A stretch of 62,942 bases of DNA, taken from Minisyncoccota bacterium (GTDB lineage: Bacteria > Patescibacteriota > Minisyncoccia > Phycocordibacterales > Phycocordibacteraceae). Every line of letters begins with the position of its first letter. Position 1 is the first letter of the stretch. The notes below the pieces were generated by a model that had not been told where the DNA came from, did not search any database, and worked only from the letters and a program-made list of their open reading frames with translations. Position numbers and translations under genes: made by a program. Location of the stretch: the NCBI GenBank assembly GCA_041663025.1, contig JBAZRE010000004.1, positions 1-62,942 of the forward strand. The letters run 5' to 3'. Below, piece after piece: positions 8,138 to 61,300 of the stretch.

Positions 8138-8740
8138 CTAATTCGCCGGCAAGTCAATATGTATGAAAGATTTCCTGTGGATAGCACACAGACCATATTT
8201 CTTTAGCGCCTCATAATGTGCCTTCGTACCGTATCCTTTGTGCTTCTCAAAGCTATATTCTGGATATGTTTTAGCGAGCTCGAGCATGAGTCGATCTCGT
8301 GAGACTTTTGCGGCAATAGAAGCAAGCGAGATAATCGGGATAAGCTCATCGCCATTGATGACAGTTTCTTGAGAATATTCAGGTGGTGCATATAAAGACC
8401 CGTCAAGCAGAATGTGGAAGTTTGTGGAAGTCGGACTTCCACAGGTTATGCCGTTTATTCCGCGTGCGACTGCTCGGCGAATGACGACTGCAATACCTTC
8501 TCTATCAATACTTTCAGCACTTTCAAACTCAACAACAAAACGCACCTCACCTCCTTCGGCACGCTTCTCGAGCATCTCAAATATTGCTTCGCGTTTCTTC
8601 TCTGAAAGCTTCTTAGAATCTGCGACGTCAGGGAACTCTTTCGCCACGTCAAGTCCCTCTGACACGGCCACTACACCTACTGATACCGGCCCCGCCAAGG
8701 GCCCCCGCCCTGCTTCGTCTACCCCAATCACGAATCTCAT
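8138..8740 (-). CDS. rnhB: Ribonuclease HII
   Basis: VIGVDEAGRGPLAGPV motif; 200 aa. Confidence 0.9.
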   Translation of the reverse strand: MRFVIGVDEAGRGPLAGPVSVGVVAVSEGLDVAKEFPDVADSKKLSEKKREAIFEMLEKRAEGGEVRFVVEFESAESIDREGIAVVIRRAVARGINGITCGSPTSTNFHILLDGSLYAPPEYSQETVINGDELIPIISLASIAAKVSRDRLMLELAKTYPEYSFEKHKGYGTKAHYEALKKYGLCAIHRKSFIHIDLPAN

Positions 8741-14408: not shown

Positions 14409-14429
14409 TATCAAGGTGAGACCTTGATA
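14409..14429. repeat. REP-like hairpin family B, copy 1 (TATCAAGG-TGAGA-CCTTGATA)
   Basis: Perfect 8-bp stem with a 5-nt loop. Identical copies at 14458..14478 and 15173..15193. Confidence 0.85.
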
Positions 14430-14457: not shown

Positions 14458-14478
14458 TATCAAGGTGAGACCTTGATA
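14458..14478. repeat. REP-like hairpin family B, copy 2
   Basis: Identical 21-mer, 10 nt upstream of the RAYT-B start. Confidence 0.85.
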
Positions 14479-14488
14479 TAATTACACT

Positions 14489-15172
14489 ATGCCAAACCGA
14501 GATCCTTTTGGAGTTGATGAATGGTATCACTGTTATAATCGCGGCGTTGATAAGAGGACAATTTTTGAAGATGCGGGAGACTATAACCGATTTATGTTGT
14601 TATTGTTCCTAGGGAACAGTCCTGAGCCTATTCACATAGCAAACCTGAAAGATCCAAATTTGCATATAGTGCTCAAGGATCCGTCGATAGAATACGGGGA
14701 GCCATTGGTAGAAATAGGTGCGTATGTTCTTATTCAAAACCACTTTCATCTCCTCTTAAAAGAGGTTAAAGAGGGCGGTATTGCGACATTCACACAGCGA
14801 ATTTTTACCGCATATACCATGTATTTCAACAAGAAAAATGAAAGAACTGGAGCACTCTTCGGTGGAGCCTTTAACTCTCGACATCTTGATGATGATCTCT
14901 ATCTCAAACAAGTTGTCTCCTACATTCACCTGAACACTGCAGAACTTTTTGATCCAAAATGGAAAAATGGTCTGGGAGATCTCAAAAAGATTGAAGAGGG
15001 AGTGTCTAAGTATCCTTATTCGAGTCTCCCTGACTTTTTAGGTCAGAAGCGTCCTGAACGAAAGATACTTGGCGACTCTATTTTTGAGTTGTTTGAAACA
15101 ATCCCGACATTACAAGAAATGATTAGGGACGCCAATGCATATTACGCAGAGCACCCAAAGAGTGACATGTAA
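14489..15172 (+). CDS. RAYT-like HUH/Y1 transposase (COG1943 / IS200-like), paralog B
   Basis: WYHCYNRGVDKRTIFEDAGDYNRF, HUH motif NHFHLLL, Tyr motif SYIHLNTA; 227 aa. Confidence 0.8.
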   Translation: MPNRDPFGVDEWYHCYNRGVDKRTIFEDAGDYNRFMLLLFLGNSPEPIHIANLKDPNLHIVLKDPSIEYGEPLVEIGAYVLIQNHFHLLLKEVKEGGIATFTQRIFTAYTMYFNKKNERTGALFGGAFNSRHLDDDLYLKQVVSYIHLNTAELFDPKWKNGLGDLKKIEEGVSKYPYSSLPDFLGQKRPERKILGDSIFELFETIPTLQEMIRDANAYYAEHPKSDM

Positions 15173-15193
15173 TATCAAGGTGAGACCTTGATA
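15173..15193. repeat. REP-like hairpin family B, copy 3
   Basis: Identical 21-mer that abuts the RAYT-B TAA stop. Confidence 0.85.
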
Positions 15194-15197
15194 TTTT

Positions 15198-17386: not shown

Positions 17387-19183
17387 CTACCGAACTTCAT
17401 AACCTTTTTCTGCCAGCGCAGCAGTGACTTTTTGCATAATTTCGTTCACTTCTTCATCGGTCAGCGTGCGGTCGAATGATTGGAACACGAGCCGGAAGGC
17501 GAGTGATAACTTCCCTTCTTTTTCAAAGCGATCAAACTGGTCGAGACGTACCAAAATCGCTCCCGCATTATCTTGAATGATGAATTTCGTAAACCCATCA
17601 TCAGTGCCGACCGACGACCAGAAGGCGATGTCGCGCGTGATAAATGGATAGATTGAAAATGGCTGATACATGCCGAGCTGATACTTCTGCGGCTCGTAGT
17701 TCGCGTCATCTTGTATCGCGGGCAGATCTGACACCGGTTCTGAAGTTTTGATTTCGAGTTTCTCTTCATCTTTTGTAAACACAGTTCCTATTTCAAAAAG
17801 CTTCGGTTTCTCTCCCGGCGCGAGCACCAGCGGCGCGACATACTTCGCGCGCTCCATCGCCTCTTTCATATTTTCATCCAAGCTGGTGCGCAGTGCTGGT
17901 TTTGCTTTATCGAGCGGATTCGCCAATATGATGTCGCCCTTCGCGGCAAATGACTGGGTGGAGATCTCGGTGAAGCCGCGATCAATAAGAAAGTCTTTCA
18001 CTTTTTCTATTCCCTTATATCGAGCTTGATCCGGCATGTAGGACGTCGTACGTCCTACATTAGAAATCGGAAGTTCTGCTGCAGGGAGGCGATCATAGCC
18101 GAGGATGCGCCCAACCTCTTCGACGATGTCCTCGGGTATCGTGAGGTCGGTGCGTTCGAATGGTGGAGTGATCTCGAATGTTTCGTTTTTTTCTGAGTAG
18201 GGAAGTCCGAGGCGGCTAAAAACTCCCTCCATCTCTGCTTTTGTAAAATCTGAACCGAGGATGTTGTTTATCTTCTTGAGAGAGACACTCACCTTCTGCT
18301 CCTGCACAGAGCGAGCTGGATACTCATCAACAATCCCTATGACTTCCCCACCGGCGATTTCAGAAATAAGTGCGAGGACATCGCGCATGCCGTAGGCCGC
18401 GAGCTCGGGCGATGGCCGGTTTTGAAACCGAAGTGACGCATCAGTCACCAGTTTGAGCGACTGCGCTGCGCGACGAATAGTAGTGCCATCAAAATTTGCC
18501 GATTCAATAATAATGTCAGTGGTAGTCTCGTTAATTTCTGCCGCCTTACCTCCCTTCACACCCGCAATGCCGATTGCACTGTCTGCATTGGCATCAGTGA
18601 TGAGCAACACATTCTTCGGCAACACATATTCTTCACCCGATAGAATCGTCATGGTCTCACCATCTCTCGCATCGCGAACCTTGATTGCATACGCATCATT
18701 TTCTTTTTTCAGTTTTGCCGCATCAAAAGCGTGCAGCGGCTGGCCAATGTTGAGCATCACATAGTTTGTCGCATCGACGACATTGTTTATCGAACGCTGC
18801 CCCACTGCCTCGAGCGCTTCGCGCAGCCAATCAGGCGATGGTCCAACCTTTACATCCTTCATGAGTGCTCCCATATACCGTAAGCACTTTTTTTCATCTT
18901 CAATCTCTACCTTCAAATAAGGGTTTACGAGACCCTTATTTTCAACTGGCGTGCGGAGGGGATCGCTCTTCATTGGTATATTCAAAATCGCAGAGAGTTC
19001 TTTAGCGATGCCGCGATGACAGAGACAATCTGCTGCGCGATTTGGCAATACGTTCAGATCAAGCAAATCCCCTTTTCTTTCTTCTATTTCAAATGCATGA
19101 AAAGTGAATGCATCGTCTGTCTGCTCTGCCGGAGGCAATGGTTGATCAAAATATGTCTGAAGCCATTTTAGTGAGACTTTCAT
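17387..19183 (-). CDS. pheT: Phenylalanyl-tRNA synthetase beta subunit (short form, 598 aa)
   Basis: MKVSLKWLQTYF start, B3/4 and B5 regions, C-terminal FDX-ACB-like domain. 4-nt overlap with pheS. Confidence 0.85.
   Translation of the reverse strand: MKVSLKWLQTYFDQPLPPAEQTDDAFTFHAFEIEERKGDLLDLNVLPNRAADCLCHRGIAKELSAILNIPMKSDPLRTPVENKGLVNPYLKVEIEDEKKCLRYMGALMKDVKVGPSPDWLREALEAVGQRSINNVVDATNYVMLNIGQPLHAFDAAKLKKENDAYAIKVRDARDGETMTILSGEEYVLPKNVLLITDANADSAIGIAGVKGGKAAEINETTTDIIIESANFDGTTIRRAAQSLKLVTDASLRFQNRPSPELAAYGMRDVLALISEIAGGEVIGIVDEYPARSVQEQKVSVSLKKINNILGSDFTKAEMEGVFSRLGLPYSEKNETFEITPPFERTDLTIPEDIVEEVGRILGYDRLPAAELPISNVGRTTSYMPDQARYKGIEKVKDFLIDRGFTEISTQSFAAKGDIILANPLDKAKPALRTSLDENMKEAMERAKYVAPLVLAPGEKPKLFEIGTVFTKDEEKLEIKTSEPVSDLPAIQDDANYEPQKYQLGMYQPFSIYPFITRDIAFWSSVGTDDGFTKFIIQDNAGAILVRLDQFDRFEKEGKLSLAFRLVFQSFDRTLTDEEVNEIMQKVTAALAEKGYEVR
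18036..18060. repeat. Family C palindrome inside pheT (ATGTAGGACG-TCGTA-CGTCCTACAT), read in-frame as VGRTTSYM
   Basis: 10-bp arms identical to those of the copies around RAYT-C. Confidence 0.85.
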
Positions 19184-33481: not shown

Positions 33482-34960
33482 ATGAGGAATATGTGGCTGC
33501 CGGTCGTGTCTGCCCTCGCGGGCATTGTCGTCTTCTTGCCGATGAATTTTTATCCGGCGGCTTTCGTCTTTCTCATTCCACTTTTTATCTTCTTCTTGCG
33601 AGAAGAGAAGCTGTGGCGACTGGTTGTTGGGGCTCTTTTATTCCGCTTGATCTTCTCCATGGGTACAGTTTATTTTACTCTTGAGCCAATCCTCTGGATT
33701 TCTTCTCTTCTCATTTTTTGCGGCCTGCCTCTCTCAATCTTCTTCTTCAAAAGACTCATCTTCAAATTTGCGGACACGGAGTGTCCGCAAATTCCTACCT
33801 CCTGCTCCTGCCTCCTGCTCGTTTCCTTGCCTTTCTTATGGACCTTCTTTGACCTCGCGCAAGCGCAGTATTCTCTTGCACCGATTTATATCGCCAGCGC
33901 CGGCAACGCACTCGGCTCTTCGCCATTTCTTGGGCTGGCAGCTCTCGGCGGGTTCGTCGTGCTCACTTTCTTCGTCGTGCTCATCAACTCACTTCTCGCA
34001 ATTCTTGTTCTGATCTGGCGGCGAAACCCCCAAGTTGCTTGGGGGTTTCGCCGCCAAGTGATTTATGTTCTGATTGCAATTATTGTTCTCCTTTTTGCTG
34101 GCTGGCAAATTGCAAGCTTCGAGCTGCGCCAGAATGCCATTGCTTATGCCGCCCTGCCGAACTCAATCAACATTGCCGCCATTTCTACCAATGGAACACT
34201 TGCTGTCGACCAGCTTGCACAACTCACACAAGAATTGGCCGGCCAGCAACTTGATCTCATCATCTTCCCCGAAGATATCCTCAACCAGCATGTAGGACGT
34301 CCGACGTCCTACATGCTGGGAAACAGCTCGACTGCTGTGTTTCAAGATCTTGCGAAAGAACTTAGCACAAATGTCCTCGCGAGCTACGACACGCTTCAAG
34401 GTACTACCAGCACATTAAAATATGGCTCGACAATCTTGTTTGACCAACAAGGAAGCATTGCCGGCATCCACAACAAAAACCGCCTCACATTCGCAGGCGA
34501 ATACTGGCCTTTCGGCAATTGGCACCCGTCTTTTTACGACTGGCTGAAGACACGGAATCCGAGCATTGGAACCTATGCAATCTTTGACCAGAAGAATGCA
34601 GACACTCCGGGCGAGCAGAATCTGCTCTCATTGGCGCTCGGAGAAAACACCGTGTCTTTTGCCGCACCCATCTGCTTGGAGATTCACTATCCGACTGATT
34701 TGGCAGCATACCGAACGCAAGGCGCGCGCTTCATAATCAACCCTTCAAGTAATCGCTGGATCGGCGGTGGTCTCTCGCATTTCTTATATCTCACAACCAA
34801 TGTAAAAAAAATAGAAAGTGTTGCTCTCCAACTGCCGATTATTTCAAGTGGCGTTGATGACTTCGCCGGCATTATTCTTCCGAATGGACAATCACAGATG
34901 CTTCCCTACCAAACAACTGGCAAAACCTACAACGTATTTTTCGGCACTGTCAGATATTAG
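33482..34960 (+). CDS. lnt: Apolipoprotein N-acyltransferase-like protein (polytopic N-terminus + CN-hydrolase domain)
   Basis: Multiple TM helices followed by IIFPEDIL (Glu), HNKNRLTFAGEYWPFG (Lys) and APICLEIHY (Cys), which resemble the Lnt E-K-C triad contexts. Confidence 0.65.
   Translation: MRNMWLPVVSALAGIVVFLPMNFYPAAFVFLIPLFIFFLREEKLWRLVVGALLFRLIFSMGTVYFTLEPILWISSLLIFCGLPLSIFFFKRLIFKFADTECPQIPTSCSCLLLVSLPFLWTFFDLAQAQYSLAPIYIASAGNALGSSPFLGLAALGGFVVLTFFVVLINSLLAILVLIWRRNPQVAWGFRRQVIYVLIAIIVLLFAGWQIASFELRQNAIAYAALPNSINIAAISTNGTLAVDQLAQLTQELAGQQLDLIIFPEDILNQHVGRPTSYMLGNSSTAVFQDLAKELSTNVLASYDTLQGTTSTLKYGSTILFDQQGSIAGIHNKNRLTFAGEYWPFGNWHPSFYDWLKTRNPSIGTYAIFDQKNADTPGEQNLLSLALGENTVSFAAPICLEIHYPTDLAAYRTQGARFIINPSSNRWIGGGLSHFLYLTTNVKKIESVALQLPIISSGVDDFAGIILPNGQSQMLPYQTTGKTYNVFFGTVRY
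34286..34318. repeat. Family C palindrome, 33-nt perfect copy inside the lnt-like gene (encodes HVGRPTSYM)
   Basis: CAGCATGTAGGACGTC-C-GACGTCCTACATGCTG, read in-frame. Confidence 0.88.
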
Positions 34961-36321: not shown

Positions 36322-36960
36322 TCATGCCGCTGGTGTTTCTTCGGCTTCCTCCTTACCCTTCTTCTCAACCTCAATCGAGGCGATATCCGCTGGTGCAACA
36401 ACTTCTTCCTTCTCTTCAACAACCTCTTGCACGAGCGCGACAACTTCTTCTGGCTCAGTGACGAGCGCGACACCTGAAGGGAGCACCAAATCTCTAGCGT
36501 GGATCTGGTCGTCGACTGCCACAAGTACTGAAATATCAACCTCGATATTGTGTGGGAGCGACATCGGATCTGCCTCCACCTCAATTTCATGGAGTACCTT
36601 CACGAGGTTTGCTCCAGCCTCAACTGCTGGTGACTCACCAACGAATACGAGTGGAATAGCGACTTCAACCTTCTCGCCCTTCGTAATTGCATAGAAATCG
36701 ACGTGGCGCGGGTGGTTCGTCAGCGGATCATAATCAACATCGTGAATGAGCGTAGGGAGCGCTGCGCCAATACCAGCGAGTGAGATAACCGTCGCTTCGC
36801 CAGCTTCCTTCAGAACCTTTTCAAAAGCAATTGCTGGTATCGTAATCGGCGTCGCCTTGTGGTGTGCACCATAAACAACTCCAGGGATAGAGCCCGCGCG
36901 GCGGATTACCGCCGCGCTCGCGCCGTCTTCGGTTCGCTTCTCAACTTGCAGAGTCAACAT
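36322..36960 (-). CDS. rplY: 50S ribosomal protein L25 / general stress protein Ctc form
   Basis: LTLQVEKRTE...RRAGSIPGVVYG followed by an acidic C-terminal tail. ATG at 36960 preferred over the TTG at 36969. Confidence 0.8.
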   Translation of the reverse strand: MLTLQVEKRTEDGASAAVIRRAGSIPGVVYGAHHKATPITIPAIAFEKVLKEAGEATVISLAGIGAALPTLIHDVDYDPLTNHPRHVDFYAITKGEKVEVAIPLVFVGESPAVEAGANLVKVLHEIEVEADPMSLPHNIEVDISVLVAVDDQIHARDLVLPSGVALVTEPEEVVALVQEVVEEKEEVVAPADIASIEVEKKGKEEAEETPAA

Positions 36961-37015: not shown

Positions 37016-37040
37016 ATGTAGGACGTCCGACGTCCTACAT
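37016..37040. repeat. REP-like palindrome family C, copy upstream of RAYT-C (ATGTAGGACGTC-C-GACGTCCTACAT)
   Basis: Perfect 25-nt palindrome, 18 nt upstream of the RAYT-C start. Confidence 0.88.
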
Positions 37041-37058: not shown

Positions 37059-37736
37059 GTGGAACTTTACCATGTGATAAACAGAGGGGTTGAGGGGCGT
37101 AATATTTTTCTTGATACGCAAGATTATTCGCGTTTCGTTCATGATCTTTATGAGTTCAATGACACTGCTCCAGCACTTGAATTCAATCATGCAATCTCTC
37201 GCGGTTCAAATGTAGGACGTCCGACGTCCTACATTCGTAAACGACTCGTAGACATTCATGGTTGGGAATTGATGAAAAACCATTTCCACCTTTTGCTTTC
37301 GGAGTGTATCGAAAATGGAATAACACTCTTCTTAAGTAAGATGAGTGGTTATGCGAGATACTTCAACGAACGACACGAGCGACATGGACATCTCTATCAA
37401 GGAAAAACAAAGAAAATACTTATCGCGCAGCAAGAGCATTTTCTTTATGCGCTTCATTATCTTCATTTAAATTCTCTTGATTATCTTCCTGGCGCAAAGA
37501 AGTGGCGTGAACGTGATAAAGGCATGATATCGGATATACCGAAAGCACTGGACTACCTCCAAAATTATCGTTGGAGCAGTTATCCAGACTATTGCGGCAA
37601 AAAGAATTTTCCATCAATCCTCACTACATCGCTTTTTGCTAATGCCTTTGGCACTGATTATGCATCTGCTCTGAAAGAATATCTGACGGATCGAATTACC
37701 AATGAAGATTTAGAATACATAGAATTTGAGCCGTAG
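37059..37736 (+). CDS. RAYT-like HUH/Y1 transposase (COG1943 / IS200-like), paralog C (GTG start)
   Basis: (M)ELYHVINRGVEGRNIFLDTQDYSRF, HUH motif NHFHLLL, Tyr motif HYLHLNSL. Closest to paralog A. Confidence 0.8.
   Translation: MELYHVINRGVEGRNIFLDTQDYSRFVHDLYEFNDTAPALEFNHAISRGSNVGRPTSYIRKRLVDIHGWELMKNHFHLLLSECIENGITLFLSKMSGYARYFNERHERHGHLYQGKTKKILIAQQEHFLYALHYLHLNSLDYLPGAKKWRERDKGMISDIPKALDYLQNYRWSSYPDYCGKKNFPSILTTSLFANAFGTDYASALKEYLTDRITNEDLEYIEFEP
37209..37233. repeat. Family C palindrome inside the RAYT-C ORF (encodes NVGRPTSY)
   Basis: Identical 25-mer, in-frame, at the position homologous to the family A hairpin inside RAYT-A. Confidence 0.88.
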
Positions 37737-37740
37737 AATC

Positions 37741-37765
37741 ATGTAGGACGTCGGACGTCCTACAT
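37741..37765. repeat. Family C palindrome downstream of RAYT-C, overlapping the fba stop codon
   Basis: ATGTAGGACGTC-G-GACGTCCTACAT. The last fba codon (ATG) and TAG stop (37760..37765) lie inside it. Confidence 0.88.
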
Positions 37766-38752
37766 TAGAACTGAGGAGAGTTTGGAGAGACGAGAGAGGA
37801 AAGCGGCGCGAGCAGCAGGAATGTTTTCTTCTTTCCCTCTCCAGAGTGCAAGTGCCTCTTCTTGAATGGCACGTGAGTAAGAAAAGGTCATTGGCCACGG
37901 GGCGTTAACTTCTTTCGCTCGACGGATTATCGCAGACAAGTTGTCTGTTGCCTGATCAGGCGTCTGCCCTCCAGAGAGAAAGACGATACCAGCCACTTGT
38001 GACGGGATACTCGCGACGAGTGCCGCAACAGTATCTTCGGCAACTTCTTCTGGTGTATCTTTCTTCTTGTTTTCATTGCCCGAAAGCGCCATAGAGGTCT
38101 TCACGATCACGCTGGCGCGGTCAACTGAATGTTCGGCAAGTACTGAAAAGAGTGTCTGCATCGTCTTTTCAATGGCTGCACGTGCACGCATGCGACTATG
38201 CTTCCCTTCAAGCAGTACTTCTGGCTCGAGAATAGGCACGAGACCACCCGCCTGTGCCTCCTTTGCATAATTCGCGAGCCGTTTCGCGTTCTCGTGGATC
38301 GCCATATCACTGGGCAGATGATCGCCGTCAATGCGAATAATCGCGCGCCACTTGGTAAAGATCGCACCTTGTTTCTTATATAGTGCGAGTCGTTCAGGAA
38401 GATCAAGAAGACCTTGGGTGATGAGCTCTTGCGGACTATCTTGGAGCGGCTCGGTGCCGAGATCAACCTTCACCCCCGGCAAGATGCCACGAGTCGCAAG
38501 CGATTTTGAAAATAATTTCTTATCATTTCCCTTCTGAAGAAGCGTTTCCGAAAAAAGTATGACCCCTGAGAGATATTTTTCGATTCCCTCGGTGCCAATG
38601 AAGAGATCGCGATCTTGCCGACGCATCTCTGCACTCGCGGGAATGCCATATGAAGCGAGGCGCGTTGTCGCGGAGTGCACACTCTCATCTGCAGCAAGAA
38701 TCCCTTTGCCGGATTGGAATAGTGAACGCGCCGTTGCGACAAGATCAGTCAT
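37760..38752 (-). CDS. fba: Fructose-bisphosphate aldolase, class I
   Basis: GKGILAADES motif; 330 aa. Confidence 0.75.
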   Translation of the reverse strand: MTDLVATARSLFQSGKGILAADESVHSATTRLASYGIPASAEMRRQDRDLFIGTEGIEKYLSGVILFSETLLQKGNDKKLFSKSLATRGILPGVKVDLGTEPLQDSPQELITQGLLDLPERLALYKKQGAIFTKWRAIIRIDGDHLPSDMAIHENAKRLANYAKEAQAGGLVPILEPEVLLEGKHSRMRARAAIEKTMQTLFSVLAEHSVDRASVIVKTSMALSGNENKKKDTPEEVAEDTVAALVASIPSQVAGIVFLSGGQTPDQATDNLSAIIRRAKEVNAPWPMTFSYSRAIQEEALALWRGKEENIPAARAAFLSRLSKLSSVLM

Positions 38753-43886: not shown

Positions 43887-44941
43887 ATCGCCGCAGTGGC
43901 GATGACGTGACGCACGAGCGATTCTGCATATCCCATCTCATTATCATACCAGGCGAGCACCTTCACGAGATTTCCATCGACCACGCGCGTCATGCCGAGA
44001 TCGGCGATAGAGGCATAAGGCTCGCCGACGATATCGCTCGATACGAGATCATCATCGGTCGTTTTGAAGATGCCCGCCCAGCGCGGGTCGGCCTCGGCAC
44101 GACGAAGCGCGTCATTGACCTCTTCGCGCGTAGTCGGCCGCTTCGCGATAAAGGTGATATCCGCGATAGACCCTGCCGCCACCGGCACGCGTAATGAGAT
44201 CCCGTCAAACTTCCCCGCGAGCGATTCATATGCCTGCGTCACTGCGGTCGCAGCACCGGTCGATGTCGGCACGATATTCATCGCTGCCGCTCTGCCCTCC
44301 TTCATATCCTTCTTTGCTGGACCATCGACGATAGACTGGCTCGCGGTGTAGGCATGTGTGGTGGAGAGTATCGCCTTCTCGATCCCGATGGCTTCATCAA
44401 GAATCGCGATGACTGGGCTCGCGGCGTTGGTGGTGCAGGAGGCGTTGCTGGTTATCTGACACGTCGCGAGTTTTTCCTCATTCACCCCCATTAATACAGT
44501 TTCTCCCCCGTCACCATGCGCGGGTGCAGAAATAACCACGCGCTTAGCGCCCGCATCAATATGCGCATGCGCCTTCTCATAGTCAGTAAAAAATCCTGTG
44601 GACTCCACCACGACATCAATCGCGAGATCCTTCCACGGCAGGTTCGCGGGCTCTTTCTCCGAAAAGAACTTCACCTCCTTCCCATCAATCAGCAAGGTGA
44701 CTCCTCGCATCGAGGTGTCTCCTTGCGCATTTTGTGGATGTCTGACATCCACAGAGAAGGGTGCCCGCCCATACACCGTGTCATATTTGAGCAAATACGC
44801 GAGATTCTCGAGCGAGCCGAGATCGTTCACCGCGACAATCTCAATATCGCTTGCCTCGCCGACAGGCGGGCGCCCATGCGCAAGCCGCGCAAACGCTCTG
44901 CCTATCCTCCCGAACCCGTTAATAGCAACGCGAATAGCCAT
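43880..44941 (-). CDS. gap: Glyceraldehyde-3-phosphate dehydrogenase
   Basis: INGFGRIGR and SNASCTTN motifs. Confidence 0.92.
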   Translation of the reverse strand: MAIRVAINGFGRIGRAFARLAHGRPPVGEASDIEIVAVNDLGSLENLAYLLKYDTVYGRAPFSVDVRHPQNAQGDTSMRGVTLLIDGKEVKFFSEKEPANLPWKDLAIDVVVESTGFFTDYEKAHAHIDAGAKRVVISAPAHGDGGETVLMGVNEEKLATCQITSNASCTTNAASPVIAILDEAIGIEKAILSTTHAYTASQSIVDGPAKKDMKEGRAAAMNIVPTSTGAATAVTQAYESLAGKFDGISLRVPVAAGSIADITFIAKRPTTREEVNDALRRAEADPRWAGIFKTTDDDLVSSDIVGEPYASIADLGMTRVVDGNLVKVLAWYDNEMGYAESLVRHVIATAAIV

Positions 44942-52308: not shown

Positions 52309-55300
52309 TCATGTTGTAGCTGACGTGTCAGCAGGCACGACATCAGCTCCGACGCTTTCGGTCGGAGTCCCGACTTCTGACGTCGGGACAGGAGGCGGAG
52401 CCGCGGGAGCAGTGGGTTCGACAGTCTCACCGTGAATGACGGTGATGAGGCGCGAGGCGGTGCCGATATTCCCTGCCGCATCGGTCGCGGTGTAGGTGAG
52501 GGTGTAGAGTCCGGCGGTTGAAGTATCGACTGTGCCCGTCACGATCGGCATTATTGATCCATCTGTGTCATCAGCTGCAGTCGCGCCAGGATCGGTGAAG
52601 ACATCGCCAACGGTAATCTGCATCGCTGCATCTCCATTGAGCGTTACCACGGGCGATACCGTATCCGGATTTAAGGTTTGATCCAGCTGTAGCGGGATCG
52701 AACCTTGGTTATCGGAATCAGTCTGACTTCCACCCGCGCCCGAATCCGAAGCGCCAACAATGACCGAGCGCATCGCAGTCGAGCTATTCCCTGCCGCATC
52801 CTTCGCTTCATAGGTGATGAGATAGGTCGTCGGGCTAGCAGTGTCTATCGTCGCTGTAGAAACCTCTTGTTGCACACCATTTATATAGGTAGTGACCGAA
52901 GGATTATTGTCGATATCATCGACAACTGTCACACCTGGATCGGTGAACGTATCACCGACCGAGAGGCGCACCGGATTGTCACCGAGCAGAGTAATCACTG
53001 GCGGCGTCGTATCTCTTTCATTGGAAATTGAAAATTGTGAATTGGAAATTTCTGGCGGCGTGCTCGTCGCCACCTGACCCTCGGTCTGGACGAGGAAGTA
53101 GTCGAAGGAGACGTCGCTCTCTTGTGGCGCAGAGAGCACGAGCTTGAAAGATCCCTCCTTCTTGTCGCTGATGAACCACGAGCCCGTGGTTGAGGCGGTC
53201 AACGTCACGAATATCTTGGTTGTCGGCTTCACGTAGGCGTTCTCAACCTGCGCGACGGTGTTGCCGGCGAGAATGTTGACTGTACCAGCAGAGCTGCTGC
53301 CCTCAGAATTGGTCGCGGCGACGAATCGGTCGGCAATCAGCGTGCCAAACTGCGCGATGCCATTGCTTATGAACACTCCGAATGCGTTAAACGCGCTTGC
53401 GAGTGTTGAAGTGGAGAAGGTAACTGGTGAGTCGCTCGCTGTTGAGACTTCACCATTCTCGAGCGCGGAGACGCGCGCCTCAAGCGAGGTGAGGCGCATC
53501 TCGTGTGCATCAACCTTCGCCGCGAGATCATACACACCAGAGAGCGTGTAGGTCGCGAGCTTGTAGATATCAACGCCATTGCCGTCGGCCGTCAGAACAT
53601 CTGGAGATGTAGTGGAAGCAAAACCTCCAAGTAGACTTGAGATGTCACCTCTGACTGGCACAATAAATTCGTTTGCACTAACCGCACCGCTCACGTTGAA
53701 AGCATCCAGACTTAATTTATCAATCGATTGTTTGACCATCGCCTGCACTTGATCTTCAATCTTCATATTGGCGACGCGGTCTGCGACCATGCTCTCAACC
53801 TGTTCAACCACCAAGCTCTTGTTGCGACGAGAAATCAACACATTAATTTTGCCTTCGCCCTCTGCCAATGGCTCGAGCGCGACGCCCACAGTCGGATCGC
53901 CCGGATCAGCGCGCATCACGTATCCCGGCGTTGAAGATGCCGCGGTGAGCGAGTCGCCGGATATGATTGGCCCATTCTCCGCGCTCACGAACGCCGGAAT
54001 CTGACCGAGCATAGCGATGAGCTTGTAGTTCGGATTATTTTTATATTCCTCCTTCGCGTTCCCGATGAAGCCCGGCTTTGTGGAGACGATGCCCATCAGA
54101 TTATTATCCGCAGCACGATCGCAACGCTTCACCGCATTCTTCTGGCTCGTGTCAACACAGACTGCCTCGCCAGATTTCAAATCGATGTCGTCAGTGTAGA
54201 AATATTCGGCGTAGTCAGCGCTGCCGGACTGCAAGGCGACCGGGCTGTAGATACTGCCGTCAGCGCGCACATCGCCGTAGCCGGTAACACGGAAGATGGC
54301 GCCGGACGTCGTGGTGGAAATAACGAATGCATCAGAATTATCGGTTACGCTACTCACCACCGACAATCTGGCATATGGGCTGGTGGTGCCGATGCCCACA
54401 TTACCCAAAGAATCAATGACCATCGCCTGATCGCCGCCGCCGATAGTGGTGGTGGCGTTCGTTACCGATGGCGCGATGGTCAACCCGCCCAAGCTGTTAA
54501 CGGTAAAGTTCGCATAATTGGTGGTGTCATATGCCAACGTCAGCTGGGCGCCGACGCTTGAGGCGATAGAGAGTCGCGACATCGGCGAGCTCGTGCCGAC
54601 GCCGACATAGCCGCTGCTTAAAATCGTAATGTCTTCGCCCGATGTTCCATTCCCCATGCTAAATCTGCCGCTATGTTCCCATATTCTAAAGTCCGCATCT
54701 TCACCGCTTGCATCGTTAAAGTCTATAAGTCCGCCAGAACTGCCATAGAGCTGCATGCCCGCATAACTTGAGATTATCCCCAAGAAAGCTCCTTGAGCAG
54801 TCGGCATATTGCCAGTCCCAAGATCTCCAACTACATGGAGAGGTGAGAGTGGATCTGCCGTCCCGATGCCGACGTTCCCGCTTGTTTGTTGAACCACAAA
54901 TTTATTCGTTCCGATGGTCAAACCATTAGCAAAGGTTGATGTCGCCGTACCAGAACTCAAGCCGAGAGATCCGTCGGTAGAAGAGATTCCTGTGCCCGTG
55001 AGATACAGCGAGCCAGTACCGACCTTCAAAGTACCCATGACGTGCAGATTGTTCTCAATGGTTGAGGTCCCTGTCCCGCCCACATAGAGTCTGCCCGATG
55101 TGGAGAGAGATTCGGCAGGCGAGGTGGTGCCAATTCCGACGTTTCCATTCGCCAACACGGTCATAAAGGTTGAAGTGGCCGTACCGTTGGTGGTTGAGGC
55201 AATCGTGAAGAGCGGCGTGTTGGCGGCGGTGGTTCTGGAGTTTGAAATGGAGAGAAGAGAACCAGGGGTCGTAGAGCCCAAACCAATTCGGCCGGTGGCG

Positions 55301-58300
55301 AAGTCACCGTAGATGAGTGGAGTGGTGGAGGAGTTGGCAAGATAGAACTTGTTAGAGCCGGTCTCGAAGTAGCCAGCCTCATTGCCAATGAAGACGTTGC
55401 CAGAACCAAGAGCGCTAAAACCGGCCGACATGCCCAAGGCAACATTATAGCTACCGGTCTGGTTATTAAATAAACTACCCGCGCCAAAAGCGGTATTTAC
55501 TTGACCGGTAGTGTTATTCGGCAAAGCGAGAAATCCAAAAGCAGAATTATTTTCCCCGGTGGTATTTAAGTTAAGTGCATTACCGCCGAAAGCGCTGTTG
55601 TAGGAGCCGATTGTATTGGACAGAAGGGCATCACTTCCAAACGCATTGTTATAACTACCTGTTGTGTTTGATCCGAGAGCACCAGCTGTATCACCTGTAC
55701 CAAAAGCGTTGTTATAGCTACCCGTGCTATTAGAGCCTAGACTGGAGCCACCAAAAGCGCTGTTGTAGGAGCCGACGGTATTAACTCCCAAAGACATCAT
55801 ACCAAAGGCGCTATTGGCATTACCATTGGAATATTCCAAAGCCATTCCGCCGAAAGCACTATTTGAAGAGCCAGTTGTATTCGATTCAAATGCGCCTGCA
55901 CCAACCGCGGTATTGAACAGACCAGCAACTGTACCTCCATCCGGCATATTGCTCATGCCGGCGTTAGCACCGATAAATATATTGGTGTTCCAACCCAACG
56001 TGTCAGCGCCCGAGCTCCTCATTTCAAAACCAGTAGTGCCATCAGAATTTAAGAGAGTGAAGACAGGACTGGTTTGGGTAAGTTTCTTAACTGAAATAGC
56101 GTCAATGTATCCGTCGAAGTCTGTACTTGGGGTAAATATAAGATTGTCGGTGGTTTGGGCGGTAACAACCTCATACACATATCCTCCATCGACAATAGAA
56201 TAAGAATTCTGGCAATCAGTTCCGCCAAGAGAGCAGGTAACTGTACCCGTGCCGTTGAGTGTCTCTATGTAGAATGTAATCACATACGTCTCTCCGGCGA
56301 CTGCAGAAACATCCTGTTCTAGAGTCGCGATATTGCCCGGCGTATGCACCTCCCAATCATTGACTCCATCATATGACCAGCCGGCGCCAACGGTCCAGCC
56401 GGTATCGTTGGTGTTAAAACTGCCGTTAGTAACTTTTTCTGTGCCAAGTGTGGCTTCGGTGTTGGTGCCTTGGATAGATAGCTTAGCGGCTGGTGCAGAT
56501 GTGCCAATCCCTATATTCCCATTCGCCAAGACGGTCATGAAGGTTGAGGTTGCCGTTCCGTCGGTTGTAGAAGCAATGGTAAAGAGCGGCGTGTTGGCGG
56601 CAGTGGTTCGTGAGTTAGAAATGGAGAGAAGTGAGTACGGAGACGTTGTGCCAATTCCGACGAGACCGAGATTCACCATGTTGAGACCACCAGCATCGTT
56701 GCCCGCGCCGAGAGTTGAGGCGAGAGTATCGATGACATTTCCGCCAGCGCCTCCACCAACGCACGTTCCATTGATTGAGAAGCAACCACCATTCATGAGA
56801 TCAATACCCTTCGCATAGGAGGTGGTGGTGGCGTTGTCGAAGAAGTTCCAGCCGGTGCCGGTGCCGCCGATAGAGAGAAGTGAGCCTGGAGAGGTGGTGC
56901 CGATACCTACATTCCCGCCGTTCGTAACGATGAAGTTCGTTGCAGTTGATGACCCGACCACAAATTGCGGCGTGCCAGCGCCAAGGGCGTTCCCATTGAT
57001 TGAGAGCAAACCCCAAGGCGAGGTGGTGCCGAATCCGGCAAGGCCGTTATCTTGAAGCTTGAACAATGTCGTTGACGCGCTGTTCGCGAATTCAACCGTG
57101 GTGCTACTTGTCGAGCTCCGACCGAAGACGTTGAACATTGCGGTTGGCGGCGTTGAAGATCCGATGGTGACACCGTTTGAATAGGTGGAGCTCGCTCCGT
57201 CAGACAATCCATAGACCATTATCATGGGGTTGCCGCCGAGGTATGCGGTGTAGGATTGCGGGACACCCGCCACGACTGTATCGATAGGTACATCAGTCCA
57301 CTGAACCATACCTGCATTCGTGTCAAATGATTGCGTGCCGGAGATCAGGCTGCTGATTGATGTCTCGCCAGTCGAGAAGTCGCTGACGAATGCACCGCCG
57401 TTCACACTCAAGCCGCCTGCGAAAGTCGAGGTAGCGGTGGCGTTATCAGCATTGAAGTTCGCTCCGGCGATGAGGCCGCTGACTGAGAGGAGCGCATACG
57501 GCGAGGTGGTGCTGACACCGAGATAGCCGTTTGGATCAATCGTGAGCGCCGACATTGAGGAGGTGGCGAAAGTTAGCGGGCTGGAAGTAGCTATATAAAG
57601 GTATCCTCCGGCATTGCGGAATGTCCATTTGTTTGACGAGAGCGATGAATCGCCGAGCGCGAATTGCGGAGCCGTTGAGGTTGAAAGTTGGAATAGCCAT
57701 TGTGGAGTGGTTGTGCCGATGCCAAGATACGTGCCCGTGTCGTAGATCAGAGAATTATTGAAGGTACTGCCTCCCCATTTTGGCAGATAATTGGTAGTGA
57801 GAGATGAAACCGTGGTGGAGCCGAGAAGACCGAGAGATGAAGTGGCGGTGAGTGTGTATCCGCTGGAAGCGTTGCCGAGGAGGAGTTGACCGTAGGATGG
57901 CAGAGATGTTAATCCAGTGCCGCCATACATCACGCCGATGGAGGTGGTGGCTTGCCAAGTTCCGTTGGCAACGCTGATTGGGCCGTTCAAAGCAGATGAG
58001 TTAAGACCCGTGCCTCCATAGACATTGCTGATGGCAGTGCCATTCCAGATTCCCTCTTTCACCGTGCCAGTTGTGTCAATGCGGAATGCGTTGCCGGCAG
58101 TGCCGACTGAGAAGAGTGAGAATGGTGATGTGGTGCCGACACCGAGATTACCATTGATAGCCAAGCCGCCCTGATACAGATTGTTTGGCGGAGTGATATT
58201 CGAATCTGCTTTGCCAGAGGTCATTACCGCTGAAGCGGTATTAGCGACGGCGACAAATGTGCCATTGCCGTAGGCGACTCCCTGCCATGTATCGGCAGGA

Positions 58301-61300
58301 GAGGTTCGGAGTTTCCAAGTTGCGCCATCGGGAGAAGTCATGACGAAGTTATCAGAACTGACCGCGACATATAAACCGTTACCGTAGGTAACTGAATTCC
58401 AGACATTGCTCGTAGCACCTGCGTGACCCGTCCACGCTGTGCCATTGGGCGAGGTCATGACAACATTTGCCCCGCCGTCAGTCGAGACTGCGACGAAGAG
58501 GCCGTTGCCGTAGGTGACAGACTTCCACCAACCAGACGCGCCGAGACCAGCTTGTGGTGTCCATGTCACTCCGTCAGGTGAAGTCATAACTCTGTTATCA
58601 CCAGAGAGAGCGACGGCGACGAAGAGGCCGTTGCCGTAGGTGATGCCCTGCCAGCTGTTGTCCTCGGCACTTGCTTGGAGTGCCCATGTGATGCCGTCGG
58701 GAGAAGTCATCACATGATTGGCTCCGCCGTCACTCGAGACCGCGACGAATGTTCCGTTGCCATATGTGACAGACTTCCAATTGTTCGCGGCGGCTGCAGT
58801 TCTGCTGGTCCAGGTGGCGCCGTTTGGCGAAGTCATGACGAAGCCGTCAGTAGAGACTGCGACGAAGAGACCGTTACCGTAGGTGACTGAGCCCCATATC
58901 TTATCTGCGGCGCTTGTTCTCGTGGTCCAATTGATGCCGTCGGGCGAAGTCATGACTCCTGTGCTAACGCCAGACGTAGATGAGGCAACAGCGACGAAGA
59001 GGCCGTTGCCGTATGTGATGCCCAACCACTTGTTGCTCACCGAAGCAGTTCGCGCCGTCCACGATGTTCCCTTTGAAATGATGTTGCCAACGACCTCTAA
59101 CTTCTCTCCCGGGGTCGCCGTGCCGATGCCGACCGTGCCATCATTTTTCACGATGAATTGCGTTGTCGTTGCAAATGATGCAACGCTCGAGAGCTGGAAG
59201 AGCGGCGCACTGCCATCATTCACACCAGCGACATCGAGAATCGCCAGAGGAGAAGTTGTGCCGATGCCGAGATTCGTGCCGACGTTGTTGTAGAGATTTG
59301 AGCCAGAAGAAGTCCAATAGTTCGTACCTTCAATCCCGGTGAGTGTCGAGCCATCAAATGACAATCCAGTACCGACGACGAGTGACTTGATGAACGATGA
59401 GCCGTTACCGACGAGGATGCCGCCGAGTGGTGTGCTTGATGCAGTACCACCCGAGCTGATGCCAAGCGCAGAAGCTAATGTGACAGCACCGTTGGAGCTA
59501 ATGGCGAGTGCTGGGATGGTGCTGGTGGCATAGGCATCAGAGCTCGTACCTATATATAGGTTCCCGCCCATCGAGGAGAAGAGCCAGTGCTTGAGGTTGG
59601 CTCCTGCACCCGAGTCGGACAAAGCAATTTGAGCCTTACCTCTTGAGGCGACTTGGAGATTCCATGCTGGGGTGGTGGTGCCTATACCGACATTACCGCC
59701 TCTTTGGAGATACATGACATTACCACCGTTAGCTGACAACCCAAGATTACTGCCCGTGCCATCATCATATCTATATAGACCAGTATTGTTTCCACTATGA
59801 AATGATATCCCAGGTGCTGACGCAGTTCCGTCTCCAAAATATGCGACTCCACCATTTACATCCAACTTCGCCCCGGGATTCGCCGTCCCAATCCCCACAT
59901 ACCCATTCGCGAGGACGGTCATGAAGGTTGAGGTCGCAGTGCCATCGGTTGTTGAAGCGATAGTGAAGAGCGGCGTGTTGGCGGCGGTTGTTCTGGAGTT
60001 GGAGATGGAGAGGAGTGAGTATGGTGAAGTAGTGCCGATGCCGACGTTGCTCGCGCTTGAGATAAAGAGCGTTGAAGTGCCGATGGCGGTGTTCGCGCTG
60101 CTGAAATATGCAATCTGGCCAAGGGAGCCAGAGAGAGTGGCGGATCCGCCTCCGCCAAAAGTTGAAGTTGCCACATAGTCATAACCAGTGCCGGCGGCGT
60201 TGCCTACCAGCACTTGCCCGTACGCCGGCAGAGCGGAAACGCCGGTACCACCTGAGCTGATGCCAAGCGCAGAAGCCAGAGTGAGTGCACCATTGCTGTT
60301 GATGGAAAGTGCCGGGATGGTTGAAGTGGCATATGAATCAGAAGATGTGCTGATGTAGAAGTTGCCGCCCATGGATGAGAAGAGCCAGTGCTTGAGGTTT
60401 GCTCCGGCGGACATATCCGAGAGGGCGAACTGCGTTTTGGTACTTGAGGCGATTTGGAGATTCCATTGCGGCGTCGTGGTGCCGATGCCTATGACGCCGG
60501 AGGGATTGGAAACAAGCGCGGTTGAAGTCGCCGGAAGCGTACCGAAGATGATACCGCCAATGTTTAACTGGTTGTTACCAGTGGCGTTTGGGAAGAAAGT
60601 GTTGTAGCCAATTCCAATATTATTGCCTCCACTGGTGAGGTTGCTTACAGTGTCTACATTTGCTCCCAAGAGAATGTTGCCAAATCCTGTACTTACCTCA
60701 CGACCTGCTTGGTAACCTATTAACGTATTGTAGTCAGAGCTGTTTCCGGACTTTAGACCTGCGCCGAGACCGATATATACACCTCCTTGAGTCGTAATGG
60801 GACCGCTCCACGCTCCTCCAGCAGTATTCCCGATTGCCACCCCGTTAGTCATATTGTTGTAGTTGGCAGCTGTAGCACCGATCGCTACACTGTTTGAACC
60901 TGTAGTATTTGTTAACAATGCAGAAGAACCAATCGCCGTATTTGAAGTGCCAGAAGTATTCGCTGTAAGGGCATTCGCTCCAATTGCTGTATTACCGATA
61001 CCAGTATTCGCTGTAAGCGCCTTATACCCAATAGCGGTTAAAGACAAATTCGGACCTGGGCTTGTAGTAGCGGTATTCCCGGCAGAAAAACCAAAAATGG
61101 TGGAGGAATTTGTTGTCGACGCATAGCCAAGCAAAAGGCCGTCTTGGCGGTAACCAGAGTATTGATTAACGTTGATGAACCCTGCTACGTCGAGTTTATA
61201 ATCGGGCGCCGACGTCCCAATCCCGAGATTTCCAGTTGATGAGATGAAGATTGTTGAGGTTGCTTGCGCGACACCAGCATCATTGCCGACCAAGAAGTTC

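Follow-up and report, generated by a model that had tools for sequence, protein, structure and literature searches.

A REP-like palindrome probably inserted into a loop beside the catalytic glutamate of an Lnt-like gene in a Minisyncoccota bacterium

The 62,942 nucleotides (nt) of contig JBAZRE010000004.1 (GenBank assembly GCA_041663025.1, a Minisyncoccota bacterium), which are referred to here as the window, include an Lnt-like gene that carries a perfect palindrome in frame, a few codons past that of its predicted catalytic glutamate. Our interpretation, to which we assign a probability of about three in four, is that this palindrome is an element of the repetitive extragenic palindrome (REP) type, that it belongs to the family of a gene resembling those for REP-associated tyrosine transposases (RAYTs), that it was inserted or converted into a loop of the Lnt-like protein, and that the enzyme most likely still works. 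The RAYT-like gene lies 2.7 kb downstream of the palindrome and is absent from an initial annotation of the window that was made from the letters alone. The palindrome family, designated family C, is represented five times in the window, including copies before, within and after the RAYT-like gene.

The palindrome and the Lnt-like gene

In the initial annotation, the letters at 34286-34318 of the window, CAGCATGTAGGACGTC-C-GACGTCCTACATGCTG, were described as a perfect in-frame palindrome of 33 nt. The palindrome is real and it is in frame, but its length was understated: the pairing of the arms continues by one base outward on each side to give 35 nt (17+1+17, at 34285..34319, without strand), composed of the family C core at 34290-34314 and of outer arms CCAGC and GCTGG. 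In the frame of the Lnt-like gene it is read at Q269-L279 as QHVGRPTSYML, in the context (N)QHVGRPTSYML(G) and preceded by IIFPEDILN. The predicted fold of 34285-34319 has an energy of -19.7 kcal/mol as single-stranded DNA (z = -10.5) and of -30 kcal/mol as RNA (z = -9.2). Comparison of the five window copies confirms that the one in the Lnt-like gene has the longest perfect arms among them, as had been claimed, and because the 25-nt core is found in at least 112 independent metagenome contigs, the palindrome of this gene is not an artefact of assembly.

The gene itself (33482..34960, plus strand) is an intact open reading frame (ORF) for 492 residues with LNT_N and CN_hydrolase domains, assigned by domain, alignment and fold matches. 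Its product scores above the Pfam cut-offs for PF20154 (33.8 bits) and PF00795 (44.4 bits) and below that of the NCBIfam equivalog TIGR00546 (93.6 bits; cut-off 132.9), for which reason the gene is named Lnt-like. The 115 non-self homologues are from Patescibacteria (Paceibacterota, Minisyncoccia and Kaiserbacteria-like), with a top identity of 63%, and carry the NCBI label "nitrilase-related carbon-nitrogen hydrolase". No match to PDB sequences was obtained in a single-sequence phmmer search with the Lnt-like protein; a profile built from an alignment of 24 sequences matches the solved Lnt structures and places residues E264, K332, E340 and C398 at E267, K335, E343 and C387 of Escherichia coli Lnt. 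These four residues (E264 in FPED, K332 in NKNRL, C398 in ICLE) are invariant across the 24 aligned sequences, and all 77 invariant columns of the alignment are kept in the window protein. By this alignment, the plus-strand codons of Glu264, Lys332 and Cys398 lie at 34271..34273, 34475..34477 and 34673..34675, respectively, the first of them upstream of the palindrome and separated from it by 12 nt (33-nt version) or 11 nt (35-nt version). An AlphaFold model of the protein has a predicted local distance difference test score (pLDDT) of 81 and a predicted template modelling score (pTM) of 0.84, and its best 24 Foldseek matches in the PDB are all Lnt, with template modelling (TM) scores of 0.56-0.68. 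The protein is Lnt-like by its domains, catalytic triad and fold, which predict a role as an N-acyltransferase. The initial annotation had named the gene in the same way and had taken FPED as the context of the Glu in the E-K-C triad of CN-hydrolases; the domains and fold matches agree with the former, and the two alignments with the latter.

A probable eleven-residue insertion in a loop of variable length

Between the conserved NQ and the FQ of the next helix there are 8 residues in most homologues versus 19 in the window protein, so that the excess in the loop adjacent to the Glu amounts to exactly 11 residues, or 33 nt, over most of the 23 homologues. The extra segment begins five residues past the catalytic Glu264. 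In the structure model, a strand (259-264) ends at Glu264, residues 270-281 have pLDDT values below 50, and a helix (281-294) then follows. Insertions of differing lengths, up to about 20 residues, occupy the same loop in other homologues, and for six of these the DNA at the loop was read. The homologue designated L125, whose protein is 59% identical, has a 23-nt palindrome at this site, TGTTGGACGT-GGT-ACGTCCAACA, which is read as HVGRGTS; it is a family C variant in which A>T and T>A changes on the two arms compensate for each other. Another, L128, has a perfect palindrome of 43 nt that is unrelated to family C, and the remaining four have loop insertions without a palindrome. It appears from the alignment and the model that the palindromic segment is probably an insertion into a surface loop that varies in length and is modelled as disordered.

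The view that the palindrome is an insertion had been taken from the sequence alone, and it gains from the finding that the loop of most homologues falls short of that of the window protein by exactly 11 residues. Homologue alignment and a structure model had been put forward as checks; with both in hand, the segment is seen not to be conserved in homologues, and the E-K-C assignment holds. Whether the insertion is tolerated in a loop or has inactivated the enzyme had been left as an either-or. The intact ORF and the retention of all 77 invariant columns favour the first of these, as do the variability of the loop and its low pLDDT, and the second is less likely; a tolerated insertion is, on the alignment and the model, probably the better description, with an enzyme that most likely still works.

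Family C in the window

The window holds five copies of the family C core, which is 25 nt in length (ATGTAGGACGTC-N-GACGTCCTACAT). With GTAGGACGTCNGACGTCCTAC as the query and up to 3 mismatches allowed, the five matches (at 18038, 34292, 37018, 37212 and 37743) include four that are exact and one with a single mismatch; no match was found in 100 dinucleotide-preserving shuffles of the window, and the proposal that the palindrome belongs to a REP-like family is thereby borne out. The stem-loop is laid out as GTAG-GACGTC-N-GACGTC-CTAC, such that both strands read alike and GTAG is present on each. Three of the five copies are within genes, namely the Lnt-like gene, the RAYT-like gene and pheT (17387..19183, minus strand). 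The pheT copy (18036..18060, without strand) is in frame, is read as NVGRTTSYM, and departs from the four exact cores only at its centre. Comparison of pheT orthologues points to two sites. At the first, the element is present in the window and in locus L089 and missing from L065, L096 and L106, with a net difference of +6 residues. At the second, it is present in L045, L065, L096 and L106 without a change in length relative to the window, which has a degenerate palindrome, GATGATGGGTTTACGAAATTCATCATT (17576-17602, minus strand; DDGFTKFII), exactly at the position of the orthologues' core.

The outer bases CCAGC/GCTGG of the Lnt copy are absent from the other four window copies. Among 114 distinct copies of the family, pairing extends beyond the 25-nt core by at least 3 nt in 40, versus 1.8 expected by chance, and the outer-arm sequences differ from copy to copy. 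The suggestion that CAGC/GCTG might define the full REP unit is therefore rejected, the outer arms being specific to individual copies both in the window and across the larger set. The left outer arm in the Lnt-like gene, AAC CAG (NQ), belongs to the conserved ancestral sequence and its right-hand partner to the extra residues, which suggests that this partner was altered to pair with it. Such copy-specific arms could plausibly result from hairpin-templated correction.

A RAYT-like gene bracketed by family C

The RAYT-like gene (37059..37736, plus strand) encodes 225 residues, begins with MELYHVINRG and contains the stretches NHFHLLL and HYLHLN. Its HUH motif is H75-F-H77 and its candidate catalytic tyrosine is Y134, and all three residues (H75, H77, Y134) are invariant in 26 RAYT-like sequences. 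In the core of its structure model, strands and helices follow one another as in HUH Y1 enzymes (beta-alpha-beta-beta-alpha-beta-alpha), and the best 28 Foldseek matches of the model in the PDB are all IS200/IS605 or RAYT transposases (E-values of 9e-5 to 3e-2), among them 4er8, the E. coli RAYT-REP complex, with a root-mean-square deviation of 3.8 A over 144 columns. No PDB sequence was matched by a profile of the RAYT-like family; only the fold comparison gave matches. We regard the product as a predicted RAYT-like transposase of the Y1/HUH type by its modelled fold and its motifs rather than by curated thresholds.

One family C copy forms the left border of this locus (37016..37040), 18 nt before the start codon; one lies inside the gene (37209..37235), in frame, at residues 51-59 (NVGRPTSYI) and at a position kept in orthologues; and one forms the right border (37741..37765), 4 nt past the stop codon. 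None of the three is assigned a strand. The ATG-TAG frame of the right-hand copy (37760-37765) also supplies the last Met and the TAG stop codon of a convergent class I aldolase gene (37760..38752, minus strand).

Relatives of the RAYT-like protein number more than 1,600, many of them 70-80% identical to it, and the internal peptide in these is mostly NVGRxTSYI, with NVGLPKSYI, DVGHPMSHI and NVGFPKPYI as other forms. The order found in the window, L25 gene - REP - Y1 gene with internal REP - REP - class I aldolase gene, recurs at about 15 metagenome loci, and the genomes that share the L25-Y1-aldolase order have other proteins that are 45-80% identical. Being syntenic across genomes, the Y1 gene appears to behave as RAYT genes do and unlike insertion sequences (ISs), and this synteny suggests vertical inheritance of the locus. 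The DNA of three orthologous loci was examined, and in each of them the upstream, internal and downstream copies are all of that genome's own variant: ATGTAGGATTTC-C-GAAACCTTACAT in L131, ATGTGGGACATC-N-GATGTCCCACAT in L132 and ATGTAGGACTTC-N-GAAGTCCTACAT in L133. The L131 variant is an imperfect palindrome, yet it is the same in all three copies. Concerted variation of this kind ties the repeat family to the Y1 gene. The anatomy by which REPtrons are recognised, i.e., a gene flanked by its own REP family and covariation of gene and repeat, is thus present in the window and in L131-L133, and since copies of family C bracket a Y1/HUH-like gene, we read the palindrome as the GTAG-tagged REP of a REPtron, with the product of 37059-37736, to judge from its sequence and model, as the putative cognate enzyme.

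All RAYT-like orthologues examined carry the in-frame REP at one shared codon position, each in its genome's own variant and matching both flanking copies, which suggests autoregulation or obligatory co-maintenance. The GTCC|TACA of family C fits the cleavage consensus of E. coli iREP-II (PMC3333891), a resemblance that we treat as a lead only. An operator for a repressor was also considered in view of the three copies at fixed spacing on many contigs and was dropped, the enclosed ORF being Y1/HUH-like and further copies being located in unrelated genes.

Metagenome copies and their reading frame

A metagenome scan with ATGTAGGACGTNNNACGTCCTACAT returned at least 112 loci, many of which, by their contig names, come from groundwater samples. 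Among the matches listed, 100 of 143 copies are in frames that stay open for 40 codons or more to either side, versus 71.5% of random positions in the same loci, so that gene interiors are not avoided. The intragenic copies among these matches form 38 gene/site clusters, and in 36 of them the frame is GTA GGA CGT NNN ACG TCC TAC (xVGRxTSYx). The frame has its centre of symmetry at that of the element, and the peptide encoded is the same whichever way round the element lies; the other open frame (CRTSxVLH) is hardly used, and the third starts with ATG TAG. The Lnt copy is an ordinary member of this population. It constitutes a gene/site cluster of its own and is thus specific to this genome within the metagenome sample. 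When the genome contigs of species representatives, a set without the source genome and its close relatives, were scanned for the core, 12 single-site matches were found, mostly in Streptomyces, together with one Campbellbacteria genome. One of the metagenome copies, in L094, is inside an open stretch of 3231 codons; the window also has a very long ORF, of 3380 residues (52309-62451, minus strand).

Family C matches the description of REPs as dispersed, GTAG-tagged palindromes of 20-40 nt, with its 25-nt core, its 5 copies in 63 kb and its metagenome loci. It departs from that description in not being extragenic, given the three window copies within genes and the share of metagenome copies in long open frames.

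Other palindromes in the window

The window contains 21 palindromes whose arms reach 10 nt or more with one mismatch allowed, about three times as many as shuffled sequence, which has 2-8. Two more perfect palindromes lie in the Lnt-like gene and were absent from the initial annotation. The first (33765..33793, 13+3+13, without strand) is read as KFADTECPQI and occupies an inter-helix loop that is also a site of indels; in L125, this site is occupied instead by two palindromes of the form GGGGAAGTC-N-GACTTCCCC. The other (34016..34056, 19+3+19, WRRNPQVAWGFRRQ, likewise without strand) is also in an inter-helix loop and corresponds to +7 residues relative to homologues. Further copies of these two palindromes, and of two other families designated A and B, were not found in 744 kb of related loci. 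Local template switching may be behind the two palindromes, as it may be behind the outer arms of family C.

Family B is represented in frame in the gene for RNase HII (TGTGGAAGTC-G-GACTTCCACA, 8423-8443, read as CGSPTST) and in that for glyceraldehyde-3-phosphate dehydrogenase (TGTGGATGTC-T-GACATCCACA, 44733-44753, read as VDVRHPQ), where it falls within a 12-residue insertion relative to the Thermus thermophilus enzyme (1vc2); no cognate transposase gene for family B is present in the window. The L25 gene has a 22-nt palindrome, GCGCGGCGG-ATTA-CCGCCGCGC (36896-36917, AAVIRRA), which is identical in L063, L077 and L125 and has the same arms around a TAAT centre in L050 and L069; this is probably a conserved peptide with codons that are complementary by chance. 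A second ORF resembling Y1_Tnp (14489..15172, plus strand; 17.8 bits against Pfam) is 33% identical to the RAYT-like protein and is bracketed by TATCAAGGT-GAG-ACCTTGATA, which occurs upstream at 14409-14429 and 14458-14478 and across the stop codon at 15171-15195. No dispersed copies of this last family were found within the window, and the ORF with its palindromes may represent either a second REPtron or simply a unit of the IS200 type.

Proposed history and alternative explanations

We propose that a copy of family C entered, or was converted into, the loop between the Glu264 strand and the next helix, and that this would have added the 33 nt, or 11 codons, by which the Lnt-like gene is longer. 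Because the genome is almost entirely coding, family C elements mostly land in genes, and the copies that persist would be those in permissive loops and in the symmetric frame, where they encode the small polar peptide VGRxTSY; selection would remove copies in other frames or at other sites. By analogy with the TnpA(REP) enzymes of E. coli and Stenotrophomonas maltophilia, the Y1 enzyme is expected to bind the hairpin on single-stranded DNA, to cut at CC|TAC, and to spread or homogenise the copies, and it is on this analogy that family C may be mobile and the RAYT-like protein enzymatically active. Hairpin-templated repair would then have made the copy-specific outer arms.

Several observations weigh against this proposal. 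An allele that lacks the insertion, which had been suggested as a check among related bins, was not found in any close relative, the nearest non-self homologue being 63% identical; the insertion is thus deduced from a distant alignment and in a loop that was already variable, and it is located on the active-site side of the CN-hydrolase domain. The RAYT-like protein falls below the cut-offs of both PF01797 (Y1_Tnp; 18.9 bits, cut-off 23) and NF047646 (REP_Tyr_transpos, the NCBIfam model for REP-associated tyrosine transposases; 18.6 bits, cut-off 80), and the mean pLDDT of its model is only 58, with 70-85 in the core. The metagenome loci were chosen for having the core exactly, so that its apparent conservation is biased, and the coding status of the copies in them refers to open frames and not to gene calls. 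Finally, the presence of the core at the second pheT site without a change in length means that some "insertions" may be in-place conversions, and some family C copies may have replaced older palindromes through turnover or conversion rather than by simple insertion.

Among the alternatives, the one that retains the most force, though we consider it unlikely, is that the hairpin is not a merely tolerated passenger and is instead maintained by selection, acting in cis on the lnt-like gene or its mRNA, for instance as a site of transcriptional or translational pausing, an RNase target or a site for a regulator derived from a RAYT. The stem is very stable (-30 kcal/mol as RNA); the core is identical at orthologous gene sites with flanks that are only 61-81% identical; every RAYT orthologue examined has a copy in its own ORF and another 18 nt before its start; and three different palindromes are found in the same Lnt loop of three homologues. 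Most Lnt homologues, however, have no insertion at this loop, the same element occurs in genes as unrelated as pheT, the 3231-codon open stretch and many others, and the conservation of the core is inflated by the use of the core to select the loci.

That the insertion instead inactivated the enzyme, leaving a recent pseudogene or a protein without N-acyltransferase activity, might be supposed from its start five residues past the catalytic Glu on the active-site face and from the accumulation of three palindromic insertions in one gene. We find this quite improbable, as all three insertions are in loops, the loop in question is extended in other homologues by as many as about 20 residues, and the ORF is intact with 77 of 77 invariant columns kept, E264, K332, E340 and C398 included. 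A functional VGRxTSY peptide under selection at the protein level, with DNA palindromy as a by-product, would account for the strong bias toward a single frame (36 of 38 clusters) and is very hard to reconcile with the occurrence of the same 25 nt at non-coding positions on either side of the transposase gene, with arms that are complementary at synonymous positions, with variants that change both arms together between genomes (R..T to L..K or H..M), and with the modelled disorder of the peptide in both the Lnt-like and the RAYT-like protein. An equally slight chance attaches to a local origin by template switching or quasi-palindrome correction with no mobile family, for which the copy-specific outer arms and the uniqueness in related loci of the other two Lnt palindromes might speak, since the core is identical to that of the three other exact window copies and of the metagenome loci.

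Significance

Full-text literature searching turned up no paper on RAYT/REP systems or in-frame palindromes in the Patescibacteria, or candidate phyla radiation (CPR). GTAG-tagged REPs, REPtrons with perfect palindromes and intragenic REPs have already been described (PMC3333891, PMC8266576, PMC3733652); the features that appear to be new are the host lineage, the symmetric unit with GTAG on both strands, the location of most copies inside genes in one frame, and the copy within the transposase gene, which is conserved and covaries. Work on REPs and RAYTs has been almost entirely on Proteobacteria and has treated the elements as extragenic, whereas the element described here resides mainly inside genes, in one frame, in an ultra-compact genome, and in one case only five residues from a catalytic residue with the reading frame unbroken. 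For annotators, family C provides an explanation for short xVGRxTSYx insertions and length differences among CPR proteins, and a caution against reading xVGRxTSYx as a functional motif or as an assembly error. The conserved REP within the transposase gene, together with its covarying flanks, offers a clean system in which to follow the co-evolution of RAYTs and REPs. More speculatively, and with rather less than even odds in our estimation, the RAYT/REP pair of this CPR lineage could be a domesticated system, rather than a passive parasite, that places and maintains identical intragenic hairpins in a fixed frame and regulates itself through the copies in its ORF and before its start codon. If so, the intragenic hairpins, including that near the active site of the Lnt-like protein, would be maintained features, with possible roles as landmarks for replication or recombination, as translation pauses, or as targets of ongoing RAYT-driven gene conversion by which they are kept perfect across species.

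Comparison with known systems

Family C and its Y1 gene share with the IS200/IS605 elements (IS608, ISDra2) the transposase fold and the subterminal hairpins beside the gene. IS200/IS605 elements move to new sites as whole ISs, whereas here the gene remains between those for L25 and the aldolase in many genomes, and dispersal is confined to the 25-nt hairpin.

Rickettsia palindromic elements are the classic in-frame palindromic insertions. One of these, RPE-1, is roughly 100-150 bp in length and unrelated in sequence to family C, and we know of no transposase gene associated with it. As these elements are cited in PMC3733652, they resemble family C in being in-frame palindromes that occur across numerous housekeeping genes in a reduced genome, with products that are presumed to be functional. 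The in-frame insertion is the only likeness, the unit of family C being 25-35 nt in a Patescibacteria-like genome. Intragenic GTAG/CGTC REPs were described by Di Nocera et al. (2013; PMC3733652) in Opitutus terrae, Rickettsia conorii and others. Like family C, these are GTAG-tagged and lie inside genes for known proteins, and they were read as neutral insertions into loops or linkers. They differ in that only a minority of the copies in those genomes are intragenic, frequently as dimers that encode 20-30 residues, whereas the copies of family C are predominantly single units in one fixed frame and do not avoid gene interiors.

The window locus has the anatomy of a REPtron. In REPs, the foot of the stem is marked by a conserved GTAG, and a REPtron consists of such repeats with a RAYT gene (PMC3337134, PMC3333891); in the group 3 REPtrons of S. 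maltophilia, the palindromes are perfect and directly preceded by GTAG (PMC8266576). The window locus has, as do the REPtrons of S. maltophilia and E. coli, a short Y1/HUH gene bracketed by its own palindrome family, a GTAG tag at the foot of the palindrome with CC|TAC on the complementary side, a second and different Y1 gene in the same genome with a different palindrome family, and synteny of the locus between genomes. It is unlike them in its host, a member of the Patescibacteria (CPR), and in a protein that scores under the curated RAYT and Y1_Tnp thresholds; about 70% of family C copies are intragenic and translated, one of them within the transposase ORF, and the loop is of 1-3 nt. In family C, moreover, GTAG pairs with CTAC, and with GTAG thus present on both strands, one unit of the family is equivalent to a REP and an inverted REP combined.

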